This document shows, one piece after another, positions 4,144 through 64,000 of a stretch of DNA of 64,000 bases; within the stretch, counting starts at the first letter, position 1, and each line of letters starts with the position of its first letter. Location: assembly GCA_964620345.1 (NCBI GenBank), contig CAZUHK010000001.1, positions 4,544 through 68,543 of the forward strand. Direction: 5' to 3'. The stretch comes from an uncultured Planctomycetaceae bacterium. GTDB taxonomy: Bacteria > Planctomycetota > Phycisphaerae > Phycisphaerales > Zrk34. The notes under the pieces are model-generated. The model was not told where the DNA came from, ran no database searches, and saw only the letters and a list, made by a program, of their open reading frames with translations. The position numbers and the translations under genes are program-made.

Positions 4144-4638
4144 GTTTGTTGATTCCACTTCCATCGGCCCGACCTGGCCGCATCCATTGTAACGCACGGT
4201 TTGCTTGCGGTTAGCGGTATGTCGTGCTCGTCCGCCGGACCTTACGCCTGCGGATCAGGAATTCTTGACCTCCGATCGCCGCATCGCCCCAGCACGGTCA
4301 GGCCCATCCGCCACGCGCGGCCCGCGGCCACCTCGCCGCCGACATGCCGCCGACCAGACCTTGCACCAGTCATTGATCCACTTCGCCTTCAACACCGCCT
4401 TCACCGCCGGATGCTGGGCCAGCGACTTCTACCAACGCCAACGCGCCAAGGAAAAAGCACACTACACCGCTGGCATCACCAGGTCGGGCCAAACGGGAAA
4501 CGTCGGTTACTGTTTTACCCGGTGCCCCTGCCTCGGTAGGTGGTTTAATGGCGGCAGTCAGGGTCACGGAGCTAAGATGTCCCAAGCGATCGGGCACCCG
4601 ACCCCGACCTTCCGAACGAGTCCAAACAGGGAGCTTCC

Positions 4639-6486
4639 ATGCCACCGATCACCGCGTCCACACGTCAGCCGCTGCTGCCATGGCTGCTGCTCGCCCTGCT
4701 GTTGCCGGGCGGCCGGACCTTATTGGCCGCCGATCCGCAACCGGTCCGGCGGGATTTCGGCTACATCACCGACGGCCACCACTACCGGGAAATCTGGTGG
4801 CGCGAATACCGATCCGATGAGGCCACGGCGCTGCTGCTGCATTTCAACCCGCCACGGTCTGTCGCCTGGGCCCGGCCGGGCGACCGCAAGATCGCCGCGG
4901 CAGAAGAACCGGCGAACGAAGAGATCGACGCCCTGTTCGCCGACGCCCTCGACGAAAACAAGGCCGATGCCGGGCTGGGGATGGATGTCGGACTCAAGGT
5001 GGAAAAATCCATGGGACGCGACCGCGACGAAGTCCCCCCCGATGGTGTCGTTTACGACTACAGCCCGAATGAGGTCTCGATCAACCTGCCCGAGGGCATC
5101 GCCAAAACAGAGAATGGCCGATTCGACGCAGGGCTGGCGTTTTCCGGCCGGGCCGGCTTGCGACTGGTGATCGGCAAGCGCGGCTCGGTCGAGTCCATGG
5201 AAGGATGGTTCTACCCGGAGAAACTGCCCAAGGAGGAACCGGTCGGCCTGCTGGCCAGTCGCGCCGACGGGGCGCGGCTGCTGTTGCGCCCCGATGGACA
5301 CGTCGAGCTGCGATGGCGGAAATCTGCCAACAACACCGCATGGAAAAGTCTGCGAAGCAAAGACCCCATCGAACCGGGGCAATGGACACACATCGCCGTC
5401 TACGACTGGCTGACCCACCACGTGGAGGAATTCAGGGGCCACCGGCCGGAAATCCGGCTCGGGATCAACGGCAAGGTCAGCGCAAGCACCAAAACGCGAT
5501 ACCAAAAACCTGCGGGCGAGCACTTCATGAAGCCCGGCGTCTTCTTCATCGGCCAACGTCCCGACGGCGATGGCTTGTTCACCGGCCGCATGGACGAAAT
5601 CCGCGTGGCCAGCCGACGACGCTACGTCGAACCGACCGACCAGCCGTGGCTCGATCCCCAACGCAGCAACGCGGTGAACTTCGCCCCCCCCGACTTCCCG
5701 GAGGATACCCGCGTCTTTCACGCAGACTTTGAAAGCCCCAAATTGCCCGTCGCTTCCAAACCCGATGCCCGCATCGACTGGGACCCGGGCGAAGACGCCT
5801 CGTTCGAAGATATGCAGATCGACGGTCCCTACGGCCGGGCTCTGGTGATCGATCCGGCGCTGGGGTTTGCGAAGATCCCCATCCACGGCCTGGACCCGCA
5901 CCAAGGCACCTTCGAGATGTTCATCAAGCCCATGAACTGGGACAACCATCAGTACGCCGCGACGAAATGGCGGAATTACCGCATGGCCGTCGCCCGCTTC
6001 ATGGGCCGCCACAAGCCCAGCGGCCGCATCGTCGAGTTCATGCGCATCACCATCCCCCGCGCCTCGATCTTCGACCGGCCGGCACAGACCATGCGCCCCG
6101 GCCAGTGGAGCCACCTGATATTCACCTGGTCCCGGGAAGACCGCCACGACAGCGAGTGGGGCAAGCGCCCCGCCGGCACACCCGCGACGGGCTTGAAGGG
6201 GCTGCGCAACGGCCGGGACATCTGGATCGTCAACCTCGAACGCGATGGCGAGCTGATCCAGACCGACGAGGACCTGGACAAAATCGAGCCGCGCTACGTG
6301 GAGCTCGGCATTGCCCAGGACATCGCGGCCTGGCAGTACGAGCGGCCCACGATCGCCGTGGACGAGGTCATCGGACACGATCGGCCGCTGAACCAAGCGC
6401 AGCAGATCCGCGCCTGGACGCGCTGGGGCGGGCCCAGGCCCGAACCGGACGAGGCGACCGAGGCCGATGAGAAAGACGGCGGATGA
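4639..6486 (+). CDS. secreted LamG/concanavalin-like domain protein
   Basis: Signal peptide PLLPWLLLALLLPGG. Two jelly-roll-like segments ending in GRMDEIRVA- and VDEV-type motifs. Confidence 0.65.
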   Translation: MPPITASTRQPLLPWLLLALLLPGGRTLLAADPQPVRRDFGYITDGHHYREIWWREYRSDEATALLLHFNPPRSVAWARPGDRKIAAAEEPANEEIDALFADALDENKADAGLGMDVGLKVEKSMGRDRDEVPPDGVVYDYSPNEVSINLPEGIAKTENGRFDAGLAFSGRAGLRLVIGKRGSVESMEGWFYPEKLPKEEPVGLLASRADGARLLLRPDGHVELRWRKSANNTAWKSLRSKDPIEPGQWTHIAVYDWLTHHVEEFRGHRPEIRLGINGKVSASTKTRYQKPAGEHFMKPGVFFIGQRPDGDGLFTGRMDEIRVASRRRYVEPTDQPWLDPQRSNAVNFAPPDFPEDTRVFHADFESPKLPVASKPDARIDWDPGEDASFEDMQIDGPYGRALVIDPALGFAKIPIHGLDPHQGTFEMFIKPMNWDNHQYAATKWRNYRMAVARFMGRHKPSGRIVEFMRITIPRASIFDRPAQTMRPGQWSHLIFTWSREDRHDSEWGKRPAGTPATGLKGLRNGRDIWIVNLERDGELIQTDEDLDKIEPRYVELGIAQDIAAWQYERPTIAVDEVIGHDRPLNQAQQIRAWTRWGGPRPEPDEATEADEKDGG

Positions 6487-6732
6487 GTTGTCAGCCCGAC
6501 CGCAGATCGCACGTCGCTGAGAAGTTGAATGCCCCGATCCCCCGGCCGACCGCCGCCCAGATGCCTCAAAAGCCCTGAGGGTCGCCACACCGATCTCGCT
6601 CGCCCATAAAGCACTTACCGCTTAGCGCAATCGGCGCTGTCGCCGTGGTCCGATTACCCCTCGCGGACCCGCTCAACACGAACCCCGACCGGGAGCGAGC
6701 GGTCGTCGGGCGGGGGACCGGGCGGGCGTGGG

Positions 6733-7749
6733 TCACCCCAGCATCTTTGCGATATCGACCGGGTTGCCCGTCTGGCAGCTCTCGACCGCGGCGCAGACCA
6801 TGGCGAAGCTCTTGATGTTGTCGTGGCATTCGCTCTGGGGGACCGTGCCGTGGGCCAGGAACCGGAGCATCTCGCGGATCGCCGCGTGCTGGCCGCGGAC
6901 GTCGGGCTGCTCGGCCCGCACATCCACCGCGGTCGGCTCGGGCGTGAAGCCATCGCCATCGCTGCGGTAGCCGGTGGCGCGTTGGTCGTGCTCGTAATGG
7001 AGCGAGCCATCGGTGCATTGGAAGCGCCAGTCGCCGTCCCATGAATTGTGCCGGCCCCGGGCGCACCACGAGCCGGCGTAGCTGAAGCGCACCTGGTCGG
7101 TCATGCGAAACACCGCGTGCGCGGCGATGCCATCGCGGCCCCAGGAGTCGGGCGTGTTGAAGTCCTCGGCGTAGACGCGCAGCGGATCGACGCGGCCCAT
7201 CTTGCGGGCCAGGTCGAAGTGGTGGATCGCCATGTCGACCAGCAGCACGTGGTCCATCGCCGCGCGGAAGCCGCCGAAGTTCGAGCGGAGAAAGAAGTCG
7301 CACTTGATCGCGGTAAGCCGGCCGAGGGTGGCGTTGCCGACCGCCTCGGCGACGTCGAGCACGCCCGCGTTCCACCGCCGGCTCTGGCTGACCATGTACA
7401 TCATGCCGGTCTGTTCGGCCGTGGCGACCATGCGCCTGGCCTGCTCGAATGTCTCGGCCATGGGCTTTTCGCCGATGACGTGCCGGCCGGCTTCGAGCGC
7501 CTTGCAGGTCACGTCGGCGTGGGCGGACGGCACGGTCAGGTCCACCACGAAGTCGCAGGCGTGATCGGCCAGCGCCTTGTCCAGGTCGTCGTACGCCACG
7601 GCGCCGTCGACCTCGTGCTCTTCGATTCTCTGCTCGGCCGCCTGCTTGCGCAGATCGACCACGGCGGGGATGCTCACCCCCTCGGCCAGCAGCGACTTGA
7701 ACCACGGGTGGGAAATGCCCCCCGCGCCGACGACGATTGCTTGTGCCAT
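6733..7749 (-). CDS. Gfo/Idh/MocA family oxidoreductase
   Basis: N-terminal Rossmann IVVGAGGIS and the EKP motif (VIGEKPMAE). Confidence 0.85.
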   Translation of the reverse strand: MAQAIVVGAGGISHPWFKSLLAEGVSIPAVVDLRKQAAEQRIEEHEVDGAVAYDDLDKALADHACDFVVDLTVPSAHADVTCKALEAGRHVIGEKPMAETFEQARRMVATAEQTGMMYMVSQSRRWNAGVLDVAEAVGNATLGRLTAIKCDFFLRSNFGGFRAAMDHVLLVDMAIHHFDLARKMGRVDPLRVYAEDFNTPDSWGRDGIAAHAVFRMTDQVRFSYAGSWCARGRHNSWDGDWRFQCTDGSLHYEHDQRATGYRSDGDGFTPEPTAVDVRAEQPDVRGQHAAIREMLRFLAHGTVPQSECHDNIKSFAMVCAAVESCQTGNPVDIAKMLG

Positions 7750-7776
7750 GTCAGATCGTTCCTGTTCGATTCGGCC

Positions 7777-8553
7777 CTACAACAAATGCGTTTCGAGGAA
7801 AGCCACCGTCGTCGCCAGCAGGCGTTCGCGGTCGGGCACCTCGGTGAAATCGTGATCGGCGGTGGTCATCTCGATCCGCTCGCACGGGCGGTGGAGCTGG
7901 GCGCACCGCCGCTGGTAGTGTCGCGATTCGTCGACATCGACCACCTCATCGGCGGTGGAATGGAAGACGATGATCGGCGCATCGCTGTCGGCGAGGCGAG
8001 CGGGGGTGTTGACCGCGTCGAGCGCGGCGACGAAGCCGGCGCCGAGCTTCAGGCCACGGTACGGCGCCCAGCCCTGGTGTTCGAGCACGGCGCGCAGACC
8101 GGTCTTGGCCGTGGCGCCGAAGGTGCGCGGCATGTCGTACACCGGCGCCCACAGGGCCAGCGCCGCGGCGTTTCGCTCGGCGTCGATCGCCACGGCCGGC
8201 AGCGCCCCCAGCGACACGCCGACCCACGCCAGCTTCCGGTGGTCGCACCACGGCTGGGCCGCGGCCCAGTCGGCCACGGCGCGGCAGTCGTCGATCATGC
8301 GCCCGATGGTGTGTTCGGTGAAGTCGCCGGTCGATTCGCCGCAGCCGGACTGATCGAAGCGGACGCAGGCGATGCCGACCGCGTTGAGCCGGCGGGCGAA
8401 CTCGACCTGGTGATAGCTCTTGCCCAGCCGATTACCCGTCAGGCCGTGGACCACGAAGACCGTGGGCCGGGGGCCATCGCCCTCATCAGGCCGATCGACG
8501 GACACGGCGAGCCGCTCGTCGCCGCTGGGTATGTGATGGAACGTCATCGCCAT
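7777..8553 (-). CDS. alpha/beta hydrolase
   Basis: HGLTGN oxyanion region and nucleophile elbow GVSLGA. Start set at MAMTFHH; the upstream part of the ORF is acidic low-complexity. Confidence 0.75.
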   Translation of the reverse strand: MAMTFHHIPSGDERLAVSVDRPDEGDGPRPTVFVVHGLTGNRLGKSYHQVEFARRLNAVGIACVRFDQSGCGESTGDFTEHTIGRMIDDCRAVADWAAAQPWCDHRKLAWVGVSLGALPAVAIDAERNAAALALWAPVYDMPRTFGATAKTGLRAVLEHQGWAPYRGLKLGAGFVAALDAVNTPARLADSDAPIIVFHSTADEVVDVDESRHYQRRCAQLHRPCERIEMTTADHDFTEVPDRERLLATTVAFLETHLL

Positions 8554-8705
8554 GGCGGGCGATTGTAATGCAATGCGCCGCGCATTGTCCTCGTCCGCGT
8601 CATCGTCATCGTCCGCGTACTCGGTCCTCCATTGCAACGCTTCGATTACGATTACGAGGATGAACGAGGGCGCGACGGTCACGGCGTGATCGCTATGATG
8701 CGGAG

Positions 8706-9503
8706 ATGGCGAGCAAACGGACGAGGGCCGACGATTTTCCCCCCGAGCTTCGCGACGCGTCGCGCGGGCCGCGGCTGCACAAGGCGATGGCCGAGGCGGG
8801 CGTGGGCTCGCGTCGTGCCTGCGAGCGGTTGATCGAGCAGGGGCTGGTAACGGTCAACGGCCACCGCGTGACCGAGCCGCCGGTGTGGATTGACCCGGCG
8901 CAGGATCACATCGCGGTGGACGGCAAGCCCGTGGCGCGCAAGAAGCGTGAGCTGGGCAAGCTGTACCTGATGGTGAACAAGCCGCGCGGGGTGATCTGCA
9001 CCAACCGCGACGAGCTGGGCCGGCGGCGGGTGATCGACCTGGTGCCCCACCACCAGCGGCTGCACTGCGTGGGCCGGCTCGACGCCGATTCGACCGGCCT
9101 GGTCCTGCTGACCAACGACGGCGAGCTGACGCACAAGCTTGCCCACCCCAGCCACGAGGTGGCCAAGACGTATCGGGTCACCATCCAGGGCCGGCTCGAC
9201 GAGGCCGCGGTCGATCGGCTGACAAACGGCATCTTTCTGGCCGACCGCACCGGCACACAAGGCAAGGCCCGCGCGACGAAGGTGCGCTTCGTCGATCGCG
9301 ATCGCGAGCGCACGCGGCTGGAGATCACGCTCCGCGAAGGCCGCAACCGCGAGATCCGCCGCATGCTCGCCAAGCTCGGTCACAAGGTGACCAAGCTGCG
9401 CCGCGTGGCGATCGGCGGCGTGGTGCTCAAAGCCGTGGCCTCGGGTCAGTGGCGGGCGCTGAGCCGCGCCGAACTCAGCACGCTGCGCAAGGCCGGCGGA
9501 TAG
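8706..9503 (+). CDS. pseudouridine synthase, RsuA/RluB family
   Basis: S4 domain (RLHKAMAEAGVGSRRACERLIEQGLVTVNG) and catalytic GRLDADSTGLVLLTNDG. Confidence 0.85.
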   Translation: MASKRTRADDFPPELRDASRGPRLHKAMAEAGVGSRRACERLIEQGLVTVNGHRVTEPPVWIDPAQDHIAVDGKPVARKKRELGKLYLMVNKPRGVICTNRDELGRRRVIDLVPHHQRLHCVGRLDADSTGLVLLTNDGELTHKLAHPSHEVAKTYRVTIQGRLDEAAVDRLTNGIFLADRTGTQGKARATKVRFVDRDRERTRLEITLREGRNREIRRMLAKLGHKVTKLRRVAIGGVVLKAVASGQWRALSRAELSTLRKAGG

Positions 9504-9621
9504 AGCAGGTTGCAGCGTGGCGTGGCGTCTGTCGGGCGCCACACCTTGTCCCCAAGGGCAAGGTGTGATGCCGTCCGCGCTCCCGCACACCTTGCCGCTA
9601 AAGCGGACAAGGTGTGATGCC
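9503..9621 (+). repeat. palindromic repeat unit (copy 1, 9503-9570) plus a second related hairpin (9586-9617)
   Basis: The 68-nt unit is about 88 percent identical to the reverse complement of 54681-54748. The stem CACACCTTG...CAAGGTGTG occurs twice here, each time followed by ATGCC. Confidence 0.7.
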
Positions 9622-9689
9622 CACGATGGCGGATAGGGAGCCGGGATTGCGAAGCCCGGATGTGCGGCGCCCGCTTCGCCGGTTCGCGG

Positions 9690-12600
9690 TCAGTTCGGTT
9701 CCGACCGGGCCTCGCCGAACACATCGCGCCAGGCCCTGGTCAGGCCGGTGAATTGCTTCACATCGCGATTGGGGTTGTCGAGCGTGCCGGTCACGCGGAT
9801 GGTGACCAGTTGATTGCGCACCGCGTCGACCAGGTCGGTCACCGGCCCCAGGTCCAGGCCGGACGGGTTGGAACTGGTCAGGGTGATGTCGAGCTTCTCG
9901 CTATCCATCACGAGCGAGCCCTCGCCGGCCATTCGCATGTGAGGGGATTCGACCACGATCTGCTCGAACACGATCTTGCCGTCCTTGATGTAGTAGCTCA
10001 CGTCGGCCCGCTCGAAGCGTTTGGTGGTCGGCAGCGACAGGTGGGTGATGTGCAAGAGCCCCAGGGCCAGCGGCAGTTGGTACATGTCGCCCTCGCGGAC
10101 CTGGATCTGCCCGCGGCCGCGGACCTTGCCCGCCTCGCCCCAGCCGCCCTCGACGTTGAACGAGGCGGTGAGGTCGCCGTCCATCTTCGGCGCGTCGGCC
10201 TCGGGGGCTTGGCCGCGATGCAGGAAGGTCTCCAATCGCACGTCGCTCAGCGCCAGGCGGAACGAATACCGCTTGCGGTCGAGCATGATGCTGCCGCTGC
10301 CGGCCACGGCGCCTTCGTACAGCCGGCCGCGCAGGTCGGTGATGTTCAGCAATGGCGAATCGCCCACCGATTGCACCGCGGCGGTCAGGTCGGTGATGGT
10401 GCGGCCGCGGACGCTGAGGCGCTGGGCCTCGATCTTGGCGCGGACGCGCGGGTGCTCGCGCCCGGCGACGGCGGTGATCGCCAGTTTCACCACCGCGTCG
10501 ATGTGCTGCACCGGCACGCCCAGGTCGGCCCTGGCGTTGGCGCTGCGCACCTGGCCGACGATCGACCGCACCGTCTGGCCGTCCTCGGCGCCGGGCGACA
10601 GTCGCACCCGCGTGAAGTCGGCGTCGAACCTGCCGTCGATGCCCAGCGCGTCGATCAGCTCACGCACCGCGCCGGGCAGCGCGCGGCGCAGCTCGTCGGT
10701 GACCTTCTCGCCGCGGGCCTTGATCGCGAGCTCGGCCACGGGCGCCTCGCCGAGCTTCAGGTCGCCGTCGAGCGTGACGCGGCTGCCGCCCAACTCGCCC
10801 TCGATCGCGTCGAAGCGAATCTTGCCCGGCGTGATGACCACTTCGCCCCGGGCGTCCTTGAGGGTGACGCGCTTGTCGTCACGCAGGTAGCTGAACGACT
10901 CGGGCCGCACACGCACGGTGACATCGGCCGGATCATCACCGGTCTGATTGAGCGCGGCGGTCGCGTCGAATCGCCCGCGCGGCCCGAACCGCTCGACCCA
11001 CTTCGGCCAGGCCGGGTCGATCGGCGTGTACGGCCTGGCCAGATCGAGCAGGGGATCGGAGAAGTCCAGCCCCCGGGCGTCGATCGTCAGGTCGAGCCGG
11101 CGGCGCCGCTCGCCCCAACCCGCCTCACCGTCGAGCACGATGCGGCCTTCGCCGCGGTGGCCGGTGACCTTCTCAAACTTCACCTTCTCCAGCGAGACGG
11201 CCACCTGGCCTTCGAGCTTGTCCAGCGCGAACCGCCCCCGGCCGGGCTCGACCTTCGTCTCTTCCAAGTCGATCAGCAGTTGCACGTCCGGCTCGCCGTT
11301 GGCGGGCTCGTGGGTGATCTGACCGGCGAGGTTGATGTAACCCGAGGCGTGCAGGTCGCGCACGAACTGGTCTTGGGGGCGCGGCAGCGCGTCGAGCAGA
11401 ACAGCGTCGATCGGCAGGCGCGCCTTGACCCGCAGGTCGGGCCGCACTTCGACCATCCTCGGTTCTGCGTCGGCCGGGGCATGTCGTGCATCATTGCCCT
11501 CGCGTCCAGGCGGCAGCGCGATGTCGCCTTCCAGCCAGCCCACGCCGCCGTGCAGCCCGCGCCCGCGCACGCCGGTCAAGTGCAGGTTGTTCCGCGCGAT
11601 CGCCAGCTTGCCGCCGGACAACCGCAAGGGATACGGAAAATGCTTGAACACGATGCCCGCCTCGCGGATGTCGATGTCCGCGGCGACCTGCGTGCGTGTC
11701 TCGGTGCCCGGCTCACGGGTGACGTAGACCACCGCGTCGACCCGACCGCCGAGGTCGAACACCGGCGTTTGCAGCGCCGCGCCGAGCTCGGCGATCTGCC
11801 GCTCGATCGCCTCGGCGCCATCGGGGTCGAGCGTCGCGTCGATCTGCTCGAGCCGACGGCGAAGCGCCGACGCCCGCTCTTCGAGCTTGTTGTAACGGTC
11901 GTTGGTCAGGAAGTGACCGGCCTGAGCCATGCGCTCGAACGCCCGCTCGTTGAACAGCAGTTCGAGCGCCGCGCGGTACTTGGGCTTGAGCGCGGCGTAC
12001 AGATGCTCGTCGATCGGCACGTCGGCCGCGGCGATCTGGATGTCCACCGCCGGCGCATCCATGGAAGGGGTGATCACGCCCGCCACCGTCGCCGTGCCCC
12101 CGCCGCTGGTTCGACCGATCAACGAGAGCACGCGGAACTGCTCGGCGTTGAACGAAACCCGGCCGCGGCAATCGCTCAGTTCGTAGGGGAATCGCTCGAA
12201 CCGCACGCGCGCCGATTCGATCACCGCGGTGCCTTCGTAGGCGACCGGCGCCGGCTCGCTGCCCTGGCCGGGCTCGCGCCAGACCTTCATCGTCATCCGC
12301 CGAAGCTCCCCCGAGGGCGTGAGCATGCGGAAGACCTTCTGCACGGGCGTGGGCATGGCATAGATGTCGCGCGGCTCGGTGGGGATATCGAACGGCTCGG
12401 TTTCCAGGCCGATCTCAAACGGCGCGTCGAGCTGATAGCCGCGCAGCGTGCCGGCGACGGTGTAACCCAGGCCTTCGATCTGACCGACCAGCGGCTCGAC
12501 GATGCGGATGCCCGCGGCGTCGAAGCGGATCAACCCGGCGACATCGGTCATGCGATACCGCCGCCCGGCGCCCGGCAGGCGCGGCAGCGTCATCGCCAGT

Positions 12601-58335: not shown

Positions 58336-58614
58336 ATGACGCACGAAACGTCGACATCCGCTCACGGACGAGCACGAGCGATGGTACGCGTTGCAGAAAC
58401 TTGCGGTACCGTGCGGGACCAAGGGATACCCCGGCAGGATTCGAACAACAGCGATGAATCTCGGGGAAACAGCGATGATGAGTGCAACGACGGTGCAAAA
58501 TCCGGTGCATCGCTATCGCTGAATGAAGTCATTGAAGCATGGCCACGGCTCACACCTGCCCAGCGTGTGCGGGTGCTGGCGATCGTGCGCCAGTCGATCG
58601 GGGGTGCGACGTGA
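58336..58614 (+). CDS. element ORF A (reading frame crosses attL; start unclear)
   Basis: C-terminal part NEVIEAWPRLTPAQRVRVLAIVRQS looks protein-like. The stop overlaps the GTG of the next ORF (GTGA). The only ATGs (58336, 58381) lie in the host flank. Confidence 0.3.
   Translation: MTHETSTSAHGRARAMVRVAETCGTVRDQGIPRQDSNNSDESRGNSDDECNDGAKSGASLSLNEVIEAWPRLTPAQRVRVLAIVRQSIGGAT
58387..58446 (+). repeat. attL: displaced copy of the tRNA-Arg 3-prime end plus 40 nt of downstream flank
   Basis: Identical to 62442-62502 except for one missing C (CCCC versus CCCCC). Confidence 0.85.
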
Positions 58615-59030
58615 TCAGTTGTGCGTTGAACGTATCCGAGGAGTTGGGCGTTTGGCTGGAGGTGTTCGACGGCGATCGCCTGGCGGTGTTCCCGGTCACT
58701 GAACCACAGCGGGCCGAGTTGGTGGGCCTGGTCACGGCGGTGGTGCATATCGGCGGCGAGCGGTGGCGGCTGTCGATTAGCCGGCGGGGCGTCGTGCGAC
58801 TGTTGGACCCGAACGGCTCATTCGCGTCCGACCTGTCGGGGCTGCTGGATCGCTTCGGGGACGGGCCAACAGTCCAGCGTTCGCAGCACGACCAGGACGC
58901 GGCGTCGTTTCAGCGGGGCAGAAAGATGATGCCGGGGTGTCGGGGTGGCGAACGCCCGACTCGCCCGGGTGGTGACGGTCGAGAATCGCACAGCCGCAAG
59001 CCGGGCGAAACTGGGGGAACCGTCCAATGA
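58611..59030 (+). CDS. element ORF B, hypothetical
   Basis: GTG start coupled to ORF A. The stop overlaps the Rep ATG (ATGA). Confidence 0.45.
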   Translation: MISCALNVSEELGVWLEVFDGDRLAVFPVTEPQRAELVGLVTAVVHIGGERWRLSISRRGVVRLLDPNGSFASDLSGLLDRFGDGPTVQRSQHDQDAASFQRGRKMMPGCRGGERPTRPGGDGRESHSRKPGETGGTVQ

Positions 59031-60280
59031 GCGCAGGCCTTCGACGTGAGCCGATCTCTCAAGATGAGCAGCCCCCGGCCGCGAGCGGCCGTAAGGCCGC
59101 CGCGGCTGGGGTGCTTAGTCTTGACACAGAGGTTTCTAATTCTACGGACGCTGTGGAGGGTATCTTCCCGGTGCCGTTGGGCGGGCGTCTGGATCCGATC
59201 GGCGGCAAGCGCAAGCGATACGAGGACTGGCTGCGGGTCAAGGCGTTGCTGTCACGGATGACGGCGGGCGTGTTCCTCACGCTGACGACGGATCGCAGCA
59301 AGTGGACACGCTTTCGGATCATCGAGCGTTGGTACGCGATGGCGGCGGGCGATCGCGAGAAGCTGGGTCTGACGGCGACGGAGATCAACACGCTGCCGGT
59401 CGAAGAACTGGCGTACCGTTTCCAGGCGATCTACGTCAGCCGGTTCCTATCTCACCGGCTGGGGTTCAAGGTGTGGGTTCGCGTGGTCGAGCCGCAGACC
59501 CGCAGCGGCAATGGCTGGATGCACTGGCACTGCGTGGTTGAAGTGGCGGGCACACGTTGGGACACCGGCAATCGTCGCAAGCCGATCGATCTCAAGGGCC
59601 TGGCCAACGCCTGTTGGTCGGTCTGGCGTGACGATTACGAGTTCGGCATGGTGGATGTGCAGTTGGTCAAGTCGCATGACCGTCTCGCGTCGTACCTGTC
59701 GAAGTACATCACCAAGGCCTGGCCAGCGATACCCCGTTGGGTGCTTGAATCTTCCCGTGGCGTGCGTCTGGTGGGCTTCGCCAAGGCGGCGGGTGTGATC
59801 GTGCGGGACGTCATGGGCCTGCCTGAATCGTCGTCAGACGACGACGACGGGGACGACGACGGGGACGAGGACAAGCGGAAGGCGAAGCGTGCGAAGCGTC
59901 GCCCGTTGATCGACCGGCTCACTGAATCGGGGATGTCCTGCAACGTGATCCAGCGGCACGGGCGGTGTGCGTGGGCAGGGATGATTGACGCTCCGCTGTG
60001 GGCGTTGTTCGAGCTGGTGCCGGCGGTGCCCGGCTTGCGGATCGTGCGGCGTACGTGGCAGACGTTCAAGGGCCAGGTCGAGAAGATGGGCCTGGTCTGG
60101 GCGGGCGAGTGGACGCGGGACGGGCCGAGGTCGGCGATGAATCGGGTCATGACGGCTCTTGAACGGCATGGCCTGTTGGAGCGGATCGACCTGGAGAAGC
60201 GACGACGCCGGGAGCAGATGTTGGACAGTTGGGAACTGATGCAGTGGGAGCTTGAACAGGGGGTGTGCGGTGCTTGCTGA
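59027..60280 (+). CDS. HUH-superfamily rolling-circle replication initiator / relaxase-like protein (two-Tyr type)
   Basis: Motif I FLTLT (aa 83-87), motif II HWHCVV (aa 166-171), motif III YLSKYITK (aa 223-230). No Walker A motif. Confidence 0.7.
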   Translation: MSAGLRREPISQDEQPPAASGRKAAAAGVLSLDTEVSNSTDAVEGIFPVPLGGRLDPIGGKRKRYEDWLRVKALLSRMTAGVFLTLTTDRSKWTRFRIIERWYAMAAGDREKLGLTATEINTLPVEELAYRFQAIYVSRFLSHRLGFKVWVRVVEPQTRSGNGWMHWHCVVEVAGTRWDTGNRRKPIDLKGLANACWSVWRDDYEFGMVDVQLVKSHDRLASYLSKYITKAWPAIPRWVLESSRGVRLVGFAKAAGVIVRDVMGLPESSSDDDDGDDDGDEDKRKAKRAKRRPLIDRLTESGMSCNVIQRHGRCAWAGMIDAPLWALFELVPAVPGLRIVRRTWQTFKGQVEKMGLVWAGEWTRDGPRSAMNRVMTALERHGLLERIDLEKRRRREQMLDSWELMQWELEQGVCGAC

Positions 60281-60581
60281 TCTTCTCGCGATGTCTCATC
60301 CGATTGAGTTCTTCGGGCTGCCGGTGCCCTGGTGGCTGCTGGGCCTGGGTCTCCTGGTCCTCGTCGTGGCGGCCGCGGTCGAGACCTTCCCTTCGCTTCG
60401 TCTGGCTGTCGGTGCGGTCGTCTCGGTCGGCCTGGTCGGCTGGCTGCTGGTGTCCTGGATTGCTGACGGCCGCTGGGCCGGGGTGCTGTTCGTGCTGCTG
60501 GTGGGTTCGCTCGCGGTCTGGCCGCACGTGGCGCCCGTGGTGCGGGTCTGGTGGTGCAGCGTGCGCCGGAAGGGTTGGTGA
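60270..60581 (+). CDS. element small membrane protein (3 TM)
   Basis: Hydrophobic ORF. Likely GTG start preceded by AGGGGG. Overlaps the Rep 3-prime end. Confidence 0.4.
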   Translation: MLADLLAMSHPIEFFGLPVPWWLLGLGLLVLVVAAAVETFPSLRLAVGAVVSVGLVGWLLVSWIADGRWAGVLFVLLVGSLAVWPHVAPVVRVWWCSVRRKGW

Positions 60582-60610
60582 GCGGAGAACGAAACTTGTG
60601 AACTGGACGC

Positions 60611-60639
60611 TTGACAAGCCGTTCCGTACTCGTCATACT
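60611..60639 (+). promoter_or_regulatory. strong sigma70-like promoter TTGACA-17 nt-CATACT inside the element
   Basis: -35 at 60611-16 and -10 at 60634-39. The ATG of the RHH gene is 10 nt after the -10. Confidence 0.55.
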
Positions 60640-60649
60640 GGTGTCACCC

Positions 60650-61039
60650 ATGAAAGATAACAAAGCAAAAATCACAATCTCAATCTCTCCCGATCTCCTG
60701 CGTCGCATCGACGCGGTGGCCGAAGCCCGCGAGATGAAGCGATCAACGCTGATGGAGCGCATGCTGGGCAACCAGATTGAGGAACAGGAGGAATTCCTGC
60801 TCGGCATGGAGAAGCCGCTAGATCGGGCCGTCGCCAGAGTGCTGCTGCGGAATCCGAAGGTGATGAAGGCAATGTCGGTTGTGGTTGGCGAACACATCTC
60901 TGACGAGCAGATCGAACGTGCGAAGCGTGAGCTTCCGAACGAACTGGCTCGTGGGAAGAATCGGGAGGCCGTGAAGAAAGCACGGGAGAAGGCGAAGCGT
61001 GCACGTGCAGAATCAGACGGCGAGGTCGCATTCAGTTGA
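60650..61039 (+). CDS. ribbon-helix-helix (CopG-like) regulator
   Basis: KITISISPDLLRRIDAVAEAREMKRSTLMERML followed by a charged helical tail. Confidence 0.75.
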   Translation: MKDNKAKITISISPDLLRRIDAVAEAREMKRSTLMERMLGNQIEEQEEFLLGMEKPLDRAVARVLLRNPKVMKAMSVVVGEHISDEQIERAKRELPNELARGKNREAVKKAREKAKRARAESDGEVAFS

Positions 61040-61057
61040 TTCCGGAGGACACAGGCG

Positions 61058-61240
61058 ATGGACAAACTACTGCTCACCTACCGCGAAGCGGCGATGCTGC
61101 TCGGAGTCTGTGAGCGCAAGCTGGCGGACATGGTGAAGCGTCGCGAGATTCCATGCGTGCGGATTAAGCGATCGGTGCGGTTCCGCCGCGAAGCGCTCTG
61201 CCGTTGGGTCGAGCAACTCGAGCAACAAGGGGCGGCGTGA
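61058..61240 (+). CDS. xis: excisionase-family HTH DNA-binding protein
   Basis: LLTYREAAMLLGVCERKLADMVKRREIPCVRIKRSVRFRREAL. GGAGGA lies upstream. The stop overlaps the int ATG (TGATG). Confidence 0.8.
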   Translation: MDKLLLTYREAAMLLGVCERKLADMVKRREIPCVRIKRSVRFRREALCRWVEQLEQQGAA

Positions 61241-62520
61241 TGGCGAGCATCATCACCAGCAAGTCGGGCCATCGAACCATCCAGTTCAAAGGCGGCGACG
61301 GTCGGCGGCCGAAGATCACGCTCGGCAAGGTGTCGCGCAAGCGGGCCGAGTCTCTCCGGGCCAAGGTGGAAGACTTGGTCTCGGCGAGCATCACCGGCGA
61401 GTCGCCCAGGGCGTCAACCGCGGAGTGGCTCAAAATCATTGGCGACGATCTGCACGCGAGGATTGCGCACGCCGGGCTGGCTGATCCAAGGTCGAGCCGC
61501 GAGGCGGAGAAGCTGGGGCCGTTTACCCGCGAGTACATCGCGAGCCGCACAGACGTGAAGCCGGGCACGGTCAAGAACCTGACGGTTGCCGCTGAAGCCT
61601 TGGTGGGTTTCTTCGGTGCGGGCCGGTCGATGAAATTGATCACGCCGGGCGATGCCGAAGCGTTCCGCGTGCACCTGCTGGGCAATTGGTCGGACAACAC
61701 GGTGCGGCGCATCTGTGGTCGCGGCCGCCAGTTCTTCCGTGCCGCGATGCGTCGGGGGTTGGTCGCCGCCGAGCCGTTCGCCGACATTGCCTGTGCGGTC
61801 GGCACCGATACATCGCGATTCCGCTTCGTCACACTCAACGAGATCGCTCGTGTCCTGGCGGCTTGTCCCGATGCGGAGTGGCGGGTGATCTTTGCTCTGA
61901 GTCGCTTCGGTGGATTGCGGTGCACGTCGGAGCATTTGTCGCTGCGGTGGGAAGACATCGATTGGGAACATAACCGCATGACGGTGCGCAGCCCGAAGAC
62001 CGAGCACCACGAGGGCAAGGCGTCGCGTCTGGTGCCGCTGTTCCCCGAGCTGCGGGTAGGCCTGCTACCGCTGTTCAGCGAGTGCGAAGCTGGCACAGTG
62101 CATGTGATCAACAGGTATCGCGATCACGGGGTCAACCTTCGCACGCAGGCCCATCGCATCATCAAACGTGCGGGCCTCGAGCCGTGGCCGAAGGTGTTTC
62201 ACAACATGCGGGCGTCGCGTGAGACCGAACTGTGCGACGAGTACCCCGAGCACGTCGTGTGTGCGTGGATCGGTAACAGTAAGGCGGTGGCGAGAAAGCA
62301 CTACCTGCATGTGACCGACGATCATTGGGCACGAGCGACCCGTGTTGCAGTGGTGCAGAAAGCGGTGCAGCAAGCTGCCGCATCGGACCGCAACGGGAAG
62401 CACGGCGAACCGGATGAAGTTTCGAAGTCGCGGCGGTGCAGCGCGTTGCAGAAACTTGCGGTACCGTGCGGGACCAAGGGATACCCCCGGCAGGATTCGA
62501 ACCTGCGACCTCAGCTTTAG
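61240..62520 (+). CDS. int: tyrosine-type site-specific integrase
   Basis: Catalytic blocks GLRCTSEHLSLRWEDID, HNMRASRETEL, ARKHYLH. The last 27 codons run through attR and the tRNA antisense strand. Confidence 0.9.
   Translation: MASIITSKSGHRTIQFKGGDGRRPKITLGKVSRKRAESLRAKVEDLVSASITGESPRASTAEWLKIIGDDLHARIAHAGLADPRSSREAEKLGPFTREYIASRTDVKPGTVKNLTVAAEALVGFFGAGRSMKLITPGDAEAFRVHLLGNWSDNTVRRICGRGRQFFRAAMRRGLVAAEPFADIACAVGTDTSRFRFVTLNEIARVLAACPDAEWRVIFALSRFGGLRCTSEHLSLRWEDIDWEHNRMTVRSPKTEHHEGKASRLVPLFPELRVGLLPLFSECEAGTVHVINRYRDHGVNLRTQAHRIIKRAGLEPWPKVFHNMRASRETELCDEYPEHVVCAWIGNSKAVARKHYLHVTDDHWARATRVAVVQKAVQQAAASDRNGKHGEPDEVSKSRRCSALQKLAVPCGTKGYPRQDSNLRPQL
62442..62502 (+). repeat. attR: direct repeat overlapping the 3-prime 21 nt of tRNA-Arg
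   Basis: 61 nt, identical to attL apart from one additional C. Confidence 0.85.
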
Positions 62521-62555
62521 GAAAGCCGTGCTCTATCCATCTGAGCTACGAGGGC
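62482..62555 (-). tRNA. tRNA-Arg (anticodon CCT)
   Basis: Hand-folded 74-nt cloverleaf. Acceptor GCCCTCG/CGGGGGT, D arm GCTC/GAGC, anticodon arm CGGCT-TTCCTAA-AGCTG, T arm GCAGG-TTCGAAT-CCTGC, discriminator A, no encoded CCA. Confidence 0.9.
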
Positions 62556-62622: not shown

Positions 62623-64000
62623 TCACTCGCTTATCTCGTACGCCGTCTGGCCATCGAGCTCGAACACCGCGCCGGTGTCGGTCTGTTTGGCCGGCCGGAC
62701 CTTGTCGCCGGTGAGCACGTTGGTCAGCGTCCTGGGTGATGCCAGCGCCTTGGGCACGGTGATCTTCCGCGGCTGCTTCGCCGGGTCGACGACGAGGTGG
62801 CCGGCCAGCAGCGCCGCGCCCTTGTCGACGTAGCGGGCGCTACGCACGCCGTGCTGCTTGACGAACGCGACCAGCCACTTGTTCATCGGGTCGCTGACCA
62901 TGTCCTTGTAGGACTCGAAGGAGATCGGCGACTTGAAGACGGTGTCCTGCTTGGGATTGACCATCGCGAACCCGCCGTCGAGGTTGTAAGCCGAGCCCGA
63001 GCGGTAGACCAGCCGGTGGCGTCCGGCGTGGGCGATCTGGCCGAGGAACGCTTCGCTGCCGGTGTGGGAGCTGTAGCCGTTGCCTGCCAGGTCGGCGCTG
63101 AAGGTCTCGTGCCACATGAAGAAGTCGGGCGAGAGCTGCTTGCCGAAGCGCAGGATTTCGTGCATCAAGCTGTAGGCGCTGGTCATCGACTCGGCGGGGA
63201 AGCGTTGGAAGGGACGGGTTTGGGGGGGCGCGAAGTCGGGCGGGAAGGGCACGCCGCCGCAGTCCCAGAAGATCCCGTCGATGCCGAAGTCTTCGACGTA
63301 CTGGCGGACGGTGGCGAGGTAGTAGTCGCGGACCTCGGGGTGGTTGTAGTTCAGCCCGTTGTAGAGGTCGAACGATCCCAGGGAGAAGCTGTCGTAGGGC
63401 CGGCCATCGTCGCCGAGCAGTCGCCAGTGGTGTTTGATGTCGCCGGGGTTGCCCAGGCCCGCGAAGGACATCCAGACGAAGGCGTGGCCGCCGAGGTTTC
63501 GGATCGTTTGGCCAAGCTTCTGCATGCCCTTGTCGCCGCCGTAGAGGGGGCTGGGCGACAGCGAGCCGGCCGAGCAGTCCCAGCACCCGGGCCGCACATC
63601 GTGGCCTGCGACGCCGAAGCCGGTGATGCCCAGTTCGTCGTGGAGGTATTTGGCGTGGTCGGCCATCTCCTCGAAGCCGCGCTGCCGCCGCTGCCACCAG
63701 TGCAGCCAGAACCAGGTCGTGTGATAGAACCAGTCGGCCGGCTCTTCGTACAGGACGAACGCGTTGGCCATCCGCTCGAGCATCTGCTCGCGCCCGCCGT
63801 TGCCCCAATACAGACTGACCTCCGGCGGGTAGACGATCTCGTTGGCGCCCAGGCGATCGTGATAGGCGAACTGGGCCTTGATCGCGTCGTGCTCGTAATC
63901 CCAGTGCATGCCGACGTTCGGCCGCTGGGCCGTGATCCACAGCCACCGCCCGTCCGCGTGGTAGTAGGCGGCGCCGGGGAGCATCTGCACGCCGGGGTGG
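62623..64000 (-). CDS. glycoside-hydrolase-like (TIM-barrel-like) protein, 5-prime partial at window edge
   Basis: The frame is open to position 64000. Motifs GIDGIFWDCGG and HAFVWMSFAG. Function tentative. Confidence 0.6.
   Translation of the reverse strand, partial: HPGVQMLPGAAYYHADGRWLWITAQRPNVGMHWDYEHDAIKAQFAYHDRLGANEIVYPPEVSLYWGNGGREQMLERMANAFVLYEEPADWFYHTTWFWLHWWQRRQRGFEEMADHAKYLHDELGITGFGVAGHDVRPGCWDCSAGSLSPSPLYGGDKGMQKLGQTIRNLGGHAFVWMSFAGLGNPGDIKHHWRLLGDDGRPYDSFSLGSFDLYNGLNYNHPEVRDYYLATVRQYVEDFGIDGIFWDCGGVPFPPDFAPPQTRPFQRFPAESMTSAYSLMHEILRFGKQLSPDFFMWHETFSADLAGNGYSSHTGSEAFLGQIAHAGRHRLVYRSGSAYNLDGGFAMVNPKQDTVFKSPISFESYKDMVSDPMNKWLVAFVKQHGVRSARYVDKGAALLAGHLVVDPAKQPRKITVPKALASPRTLTNVLTGDKVRPAKQTDTGAVFELDGQTAYEISE

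Follow-up and report, generated by a model that had tools for sequence, protein, structure and literature searches.

A predicted two-tyrosine HUH initiator with a candidate origin inside its gene in a tRNA-integrated element from Planctomycetota

A 64,000-nt stretch of DNA from an uncultured Planctomycetaceae bacterium (GenBank assembly GCA_964620345.1, contig CAZUHK010000001.1, positions 4,544 to 68,543 of the forward strand; called the window here, with positions counted from its first letter) contains a 4.06-kb element, inserted at a tRNA gene, that encodes a protein with the motifs of a rolling-circle replication (RCR) initiator. The locus raises the question of what this protein, Rep, does for so small an element and, if it initiates replication, where on the DNA it would act. 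We put at roughly 0.75 the probability that Rep is a functional two-tyrosine (Y2) HUH initiator, serving as the replication module of a mini-replicon integrated in the gene for tRNA-Arg(CCT). A more specific proposal, which we regard as about an even bet, has three parts: the origin is a translated hairpin followed by a CTTGAC...AATTCC box in the disordered leader of rep (or of the first open reading frame (ORF), as in the related locus L008); Rep and the box alone form circles of 1.6-2.0 kb; and the integrating elements arose when such a replicon was joined to a cassette of genes for a ribbon-helix-helix (RHH) regulator, an excisionase (xis) and an integrase (int).

The Rep protein and its family

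The rep gene (59027-60280, + strand) encodes 417 aa, its start overlapping the stop of the upstream orfB in the sequence ATGA, and is present once in the source genome (3.2 Mb in 295 contigs, 95% complete). A first-pass annotation, made from the letters and an ORF list, had placed three rolling-circle motifs in this frame. The ORF and the motifs are real and lie exactly where they were placed: motif I, FLTLT, at aa 83-87 (59273-59287, + strand), on strand 81-88 of the predicted structure; motif II, HWH, the HUH metal-binding pair, at aa 166-168 (59522-59530, +), on strand 165-172; and motif III, YLSKYITK, at aa 223-230 (59693-59716, +), with Tyr223 and Tyr227 as the predicted catalytic residues. 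Conservation was counted in an alignment of 64 homologues with 21-44% identity to the query. The histidine pair and both tyrosines, on whose retention the annotation had staked its reading, are kept (H166 64/64, H168 64/64, Y223 63/64 and Y227 64/64), as are K230, E155 and Q157 (63/64 each), the last two lying on the strand that precedes HWH. T85, L86 and T87 of motif I are each found in at least 60 of the 64 sequences, and K226 in 50. Since the motifs are conserved across 64 diverged homologues, they exceed what chance would produce.

The same annotation had reported neither a helicase nor a Walker A motif, and both absences hold: a scan of Rep for [AG]xxxxGK[ST] and a Pfam search for P-loop domains were empty. 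A structure predicted with AlphaFold2 from the 64-sequence alignment has a mean predicted local distance difference test (pLDDT) score of 88 and a predicted template modelling (pTM) score of 0.84. In this model aa 1-34 are disordered, and Y223 and Y227 lie on helix 217-229, one turn apart, which is the arrangement that had been claimed from the letters. An acidic run followed by a basic patch had also been described in the C-terminal half; these are DDDDGDDDGDED at aa 271-282 and KRKAKRAKRR at aa 283-292. With pLDDT of 59-73 for aa 271-290, the two runs form a low-confidence linker (59837-59902, +) that joins the HUH domain to a C-terminal domain. The acidic run is not conserved in the family; the basic patch and a DRLxxSG motif are. 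The C-terminal domain (59897-60277, +) is conserved in the family and comprises about 125 aa with an alpha element, two beta-hairpins and long helices. It is predicted with a pLDDT of 89.6 when modelled alone, has no Pfam match, and gave no structural match in the PDB (best E 0.07, TM-score at most 0.27). Together, the motifs and the model support the prediction that Rep is a two-tyrosine HUH initiator without a helicase domain.

An exhaustive HMMER search was needed to reveal the family, because a word-indexed homologue search returned a single relative (41% identity). The exhaustive search, against 1.84 billion representative sequences, recovered 198 proteins at E <= 1e-3, of which 25 reached E <= 1e-30. 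The best Pfam match of Rep is PF23343 (REP_ORF2-G2P; E 7.2e-5), over aa 149-230 and thus motifs II-III, and PF23343 is matched by 59 of the 64 homologues (E <= 0.01; best 8.5e-12). In individual Pfam scans 11 of the 64 matched Phage_GPA and 7 matched Rep_1. Rep itself matches phrog_3419, "rolling circle DNA replication initiation", at E 0.0034, and its Pfam match to RepSA is not significant (E 0.037). These profiles place the family among the HUH rolling-circle Reps, as the first-pass annotation had anticipated. Relatives were sought in several other collections. Searches of PDB sequences by phmmer and by profile returned only low-complexity or chance matches; tblastn with Rep found no match among the 72,556 plasmids of PLSDB or the phages of INPHARED; a scan of IMG/VR gave no confirmed relative, these three negatives applying at the sensitivity used; and the NCBIfam and PADLOC libraries left Rep unmatched. 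A match was present in only 2 of 401 sampled genomes of the source phylum. The family is a rare, uncharacterised Rep clade, and all of its named hosts are Planctomycetota.

The protein had been called phiX174-like on the strength of the active site that the annotation gave for phiX174 gpA. That comparison was correct: gpA reads YVAKYVNK, the same Y-x-x-K-Y-x-x-K pattern as in Rep, and also HFH and FDTLTL. The resemblance holds for the active-site pattern, and probably for the layout of the origin discussed below, but not for family membership. Aligned by hhalign, the family profile matches P2 gpA with a probability of 94.8% (E 5e-8) across motifs I-III, whereas phiX174 gpA is matched with a probability of 8% around the HUH motif only, there being no significant sequence relationship beyond motif II. 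By sequence, the nearest relatives of Rep thus appear to be P2 gpA and PF23343, and not phiX174 gpA. The P2 protein (PF05840) aligns with FITLT, HWH and YIAKYISK, and its two tyrosines are likewise four residues apart. It differs from Rep in length (761 versus 417 aa) and in having no counterpart of the Rep C-terminal domain; moreover, Rep itself is not matched by PF05840, which accounts for the 11 Phage_GPA matches only. PF23343 covers the plectrovirus ORF2 and inovirus gpII-type Reps, but the element carries no filamentous-phage genes, and neither does it resemble phiX174 in lifestyle, being integrated and lacking capsid or other virus genes.

Two results weigh against this assignment. The score of Rep against PF23343, 23.4 bits, is below the gathering cut-off of 27.8 bits. 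Because many homologues match the profile while Rep falls short of it, Rep looks like a member of a neighbouring or divergent clade. In addition, while the top-ranked Foldseek matches of the model in the PDB are the HUH nuclease domains of parvovirus NS1, adeno-associated virus (AAV) Rep and geminivirus Rep, these matches are individually non-significant (E 0.09-1.4, target TM-score 0.32-0.45). On the supporting side, in a library of predicted viral structures 63 matches reached E <= 1e-3, the sole named one being a Microvirus replication initiator.

A candidate origin and the Rep-only relatives

The first-pass annotation had found no obvious nick-site hairpin by eye, a statement now superseded by a candidate hairpin and adjoining box at 59073-59143, within the 5' end of rep. 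The GC-rich hairpin, CCCCGGCCGCGAGCGGCC-GTAA-GGCCGCCGCGGCTGGGG (59073-59111, + strand), has a folding energy of -26.8 kcal/mol (z = -6.9), and none of 200 shuffled sequences folded as well. It is the candidate Rep-binding or cruciform part of a double-strand origin. Directly 3' of it lies an AT-rich box of 31 nt, GCTTAGTCTTGACACAGAGGTTTCTAATTCT (59113-59143, +), with the core CTTGAC at 59120-59125, which is the candidate nick site. The box was found by comparing, at the DNA level, the 5' ends of rep in related loci that had been collected with a 14-sequence Rep alignment. Its consensus is CCTTAGTCTTGACCAAGARGnAnnTAATTCC, and 13 independent loci have it at the corresponding place; the two more distant loci L025 and L027 carry variants. 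In 10 of the 13 loci an equivalent hairpin occupies the same place, although its sequence is unrelated from locus to locus; z is -3.4 or lower in eight loci and -2.3 in two. In the source genome the box occurs once at the chosen stringency, and elsewhere it is found at about chance level.

Several features indicate that the box is conserved as nucleotide sequence. At its two leucine positions the codon is CTT in 21 of 22 cases, compared with 48 of 417 (11.5%) in the bodies of the same genes. The GC content at third codon positions (GC3) is 0.6-0.84 in the gene bodies and falls to 0.2-0.5 in the box. Identity between the proteins is only 30-45%, and the peptide that the box encodes (aa 30-40) falls in or next to an N-terminal region modelled with low confidence. 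For these reasons, conservation at the nucleotide level is the reading adopted here. The L008 locus, from Planctomycetales bacterium ZRK34, is informative in this respect: there another ORF (6160-6984, 274 aa) carries the box in its 5' end, and rep starts separately at 7004, just before the GGKLDP motif. Since that rep begins apart, the leader and its box are separable from Rep. The 274-aa ORF to which the L008 leader is fused (region 6160-8017) has no assigned function. In another locus, L004, a 9-nt core, TAGTCTTGA, occurs at the start of rep in a different frame.

Evidence that Rep and the box can form a unit came from metagenome contigs of 1.6-2.1 kb that encode little besides a Rep of this family. 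L010 is a contig of 2094 bp with a 124-nt terminal direct repeat, corresponding to a unit of about 1971 bp, and its Rep is 36% identical to the query (E 9e-68). L012 has a 123-nt terminal repeat and a unit of 1858 bp; L011, a separate contig record, has a 236-nt terminal repeat around the same 1858-bp unit. The smallest, L027, has a 30-nt terminal repeat and a unit of 1614 bp. The contigs L010, L011/L012 and L027 are best read as putative circular Rep-only replicons of 1.6-2.0 kb. Because the box is kept on Rep-only contigs, which lack RHH, xis and int, it travels with Rep. The presence of both on such contigs suggests that the pair can make up a self-sufficient replicon, to which the integrative elements add an RHH-xis-int module.

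Two other roles for the box were considered and rejected. As a sigma-70 promoter it would have TTGACA and TCTAAT spaced by only 8 nt, and a promoter scan did not call the site. As an operator for the RHH regulator, Xis or Int it would not be expected on contigs without those genes, where it is retained.

The core of the box resembles the origins of phiX174 and pC194, and its placement resembles those of phiX174 and P2. The phiX174 origin (annotated at 4306) reads CAACTTG/ATATTAATAAC, the slash marking the cut. It is part of the coding sequence of gene A, where it specifies L-D-I-N-N. Like the box, it combines a CTTGA core with an AT-rich AAT-AAY stretch 3' of it, encoding Leu-Asp...Asn-Asn in frame. 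In P2 the nick site is likewise inside the initiator's own gene, A, but it reads GCGCCTCG/GAGTCC, which shows no relation to the CTTGAC box. The pC194 origin reads TTCTTATCTTGATAATAA, and its core, CTTA-TCTTGATA, resembles CTTAGTCTTGAC of the element box, in which that motif is followed by AATAAT/AATTCC. The pC194/pUB110 replicons resemble the element in being small, and their Rep_1 family is the one matched by 7 of the 64 homologues; they differ in that no plasmid in PLSDB encodes a BLAST-level relative of Rep. Rep_1 proteins use one tyrosine and a glutamate, not two tyrosines, and the pC194 origin is intergenic. On the analogy with these origins, we consider it slightly better than an even chance that the box is the nick site, and cleavage after G59123 is predicted.

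Interpretation of the origin and of the Rep-only circles is complicated by several observations. Three of the 13 loci lack a significant hairpin, and the L005 locus lacks the box. In nearly all loci the reading frame across the box is the same (LxLDxExxNS), so its conservation may in part reflect selection on the encoded peptide. No single-strand origin was identified. Finally, terminal repeats on metagenome contigs could also stem from tandem copies.

Integration, a proposed cycle and other explanations

The genes of the element are all on the + strand, in the order orfB-rep-TM-RHH-xis-int, where TM is a gene for a putative membrane protein. They lie between two copies of a 61-nt direct repeat, attL (58386-58446) and attR (62441-62502), that are identical apart from one 1-nt indel. 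The repeat copies the 3' end of a tRNA gene and about 40 nt beyond it. The integration target, tRNA-Arg(CCT) (62482-62555, - strand), has its 3' end overlapped by attR, and an Rfam scan of the element detected this tRNA only. The recombination genes are a tyrosine integrase (61204-62520, +; phrog_1, E 4e-30), whose 3' end crosses attR into the tRNA in antisense, and an excisionase of the HTH_17 type (61058-61240, +; TIGR01764, E 1e-11). Upstream of them is the gene for an RHH (CopG/Arc-like) regulator (60611-61039, +), conserved in L001, L008, L013, L014, L016 and L017. The same arrangement, rep followed by an HTH_17 xis and/or an integrase gene, usually with RHH between, is found in L014, L016, L017, L018, L019, L026, L008 and L001. 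The related elements adjoin different tRNA genes (Val, His, Asp, Gln and Ile), and those of 3.3-4.9 kb hold only rep, RHH, xis and int. Named hosts of the related loci are Phycisphaeraceae, Isosphaeraceae and ZRK34.

There are close parallels with pSAM2, an RCR element of the pC194 family (nick site CTTGAT) in which rep, xis and int form an operon (PMC2440964). Both pSAM2, whose initiator is RepSA, and the element integrate at a tRNA 3' end by means of a tyrosine integrase and Xis, with an RCR Rep gene upstream of xis-int on the same strand. One important difference is that the element lacks the FtsK-like/TraSA transfer, spread, Kor and Pif genes of pSAM2 (no FtsK/TraSA-type transfer or spread family was matched among the six element ORFs) and is 4 kb rather than 11 kb long. 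Moreover, pSAM2 is an actinomycete element, whereas the named-host relatives of the element described here are from Planctomycetota, not Actinomycetota.

The best-supported reading of the overall cycle is that it is pSAM2-like without transfer functions. Int and Xis would excise a circle at the 61-nt att repeats, whose anatomy is observed. Rep would bind a double-strand origin inside the 5' end of its own gene, formed by the hairpin at 59073-59111 and the box at 59113-59143. The HWH pair, with E155 and Q157, would hold a divalent metal, and one tyrosine of helix 217-229 would cut the + strand, probably at CTTG/AC (59123/59124), and become linked to the 5' phosphate. The 3'-OH would then prime leading-strand synthesis by a host polymerase together with a host helicase, the latter invoked because a helicase domain is missing from Rep. 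Once a round is complete, the second tyrosine would cut the restored site as the first re-ligates the displaced strand; this alternating-tyrosine step is modelled on phiX174 gpA and P2 gpA, for which it is established. Copies of the circle may stay episomal or re-integrate.

A different function for the same chemistry is that Rep is mainly a relaxase, with the hairpin and box as its origin of transfer (oriT) and the element as an integrative mobilizable element that uses a helper transfer system, replication being secondary. The nicking reaction would be identical, transfer genes are absent from the element, and one published account (PMC7563843) reports integrative mobilizable elements that carry Rep-type proteins, including relaxases of the Rep_trans family. 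We nevertheless consider this proposal unlikely: autonomous replication is favoured by the terminally repeated Rep-only contigs of 1.6-2.0 kb, the strongest profile matches are to replication initiators (P2 gpA, PF23343 and Rep_1) and not to relaxase families, and the 64-kb window contains no visible coupling protein or helper system.

The integrated mini-replicon favoured here might also be an inert relic, in which the rep ORF is intact but the element is past excising or replicating. The indel between the att copies is consistent with decay, as is the approach of the element's GC content (63.5%) to that of the host (67%). The intactness of all six ORFs, of all catalytic residues and of the hairpin and box, together with att repeats that are otherwise identical over 61 nt, makes this quite improbable.

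The match to REP_ORF2-G2P and the small hydrophobic protein encoded after rep could be taken to suggest a decayed or satellite filamentous (inovirus-like) prophage, with Rep as a gpII-type initiator and the membrane protein as a coat remnant; integrated Pf filamentous prophages with an excisionase are described in another report (PMC7379572). This reading is very unlikely. No Zot/pI ATPase (PF05707) was found, whether in the element or in the rest of the 95%-complete genome, the element proteins gave no PHROG structural matches, and the IMG/VR and INPHARED searches were empty. Nor is the membrane protein shared by related elements, and the relatives of 3.3-4.9 kb have no genes beyond the four listed above.

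Least probable of all is rolling-circle transposition by a Y2 HUH transposase (IS91/ISCR or Helitron-like), which shares the HUH and Y-x3-Y motifs, for the matches of homologues to Zn_Tnp_IS91 and Helitron_like_N are weak and number 1/64 each, Y2_Tnp is not matched, the borders consist of the 61-nt att repeats, next to a tyrosine integrase at the 3' end of a tRNA, the genome holds a single copy, and the Rep-only contigs have terminal repeats as circular replicons do.

Reading the locus as an integrated mini-replicon places it among systems of which much is known already, namely the chemistry of Y2 HUH Reps and tRNA-integrating RCR elements such as pSAM2 (PMC2440964). Three features are new: a rare Rep clade whose C-terminal domain matched no structure, a minimal rep-RHH-xis-int element type found in Planctomycetota and related to putative Rep-only circles, and a concrete prediction of an origin inside the rep frame. 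Literature searches found no description of these elements. The compact integrative replicon and its Rep-only relatives offer a simple picture of a plasmid joining an integration module, and the hairpin and CTTGAC box are a directly testable origin prediction, placed inside the rep frame as in phiX174 and P2. According to a 2025 paper, replicative plasmids are lacking for model planctomycetes (PMC11958385). If rep and the box prove self-sufficient, a phylum-native cassette of about 1.5 kb would be worth trying as the backbone of a replicative vector.

Other genes, flanks and relatives

The first gene of the element, orfB (58539-59030, +), encodes 163 aa with no family match and is conserved only in L007 (34% over 108 aa). 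A further frame runs out of attL (58336-58614, +), and its last ~30 codons (..NEVIEAWPRLTPAQRVRVLAIV.., within 58510-58614) are conserved in related elements: tblastn gave 46-62% identity over 28-35 aa in L001, L005, L007 and L014, and 32% identity over 77 aa in L017, with a similar peptide visible in an ORF of L008. Because this frame would continue the integrase ORF across the attP site, the C-terminus of the integrase may differ between the integrated and excised states. In the excised circle the attL frame may extend the integrase at its C-terminus; alternatively, it may be a small gene.

Downstream of rep, a 109-aa protein (60252-60581, +), the product of an accessory gene, has about three predicted hydrophobic membrane segments, judged by eye; it had no significant family match and no tblastn match in the related loci. 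A sigma-70-like promoter, TTGACA-17-CATACT (60611-60639, +), matches the consensus at 10 of 12 positions. Its overlap with the TTG start of the RHH ORF (60611) suggests a separate RHH-xis-int transcript.

GC skew is positive over 58450-62500 (+0.04 to +0.32) and negative in the left flank. The positive skew fits a single leading strand, and the orientation of all genes on one strand explains it equally well. In the right flank, a 455-aa protein (62623-63990, -) has two paralogues with 35-36% identity on contigs C3 and C122 of the same genome. It had no match at E <= 1e-30 in 30 related genomes, so these provided no empty site for comparison.

Two of the related loci have further features of their own. 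In L001, a 6.4-kb element in a tRNA-Asp gene, GmrSD_N and HNH genes are present as cargo between rep and RHH (9263-10683) and probably encode a modification-dependent nuclease. In L004 (G369:C19, 6700-9467) AT-rich direct repeats of 21 nt, ATCACTGTTATGTTAAAT(C/T)GG, border a 2.75-kb segment that holds the rep homologue (6921-8111), a 34-nt tandem repeat (8537-8604) and palindromes. This segment, in which no integrase was seen, may be an integrated Rep-only plasmid that uses a host recombinase.

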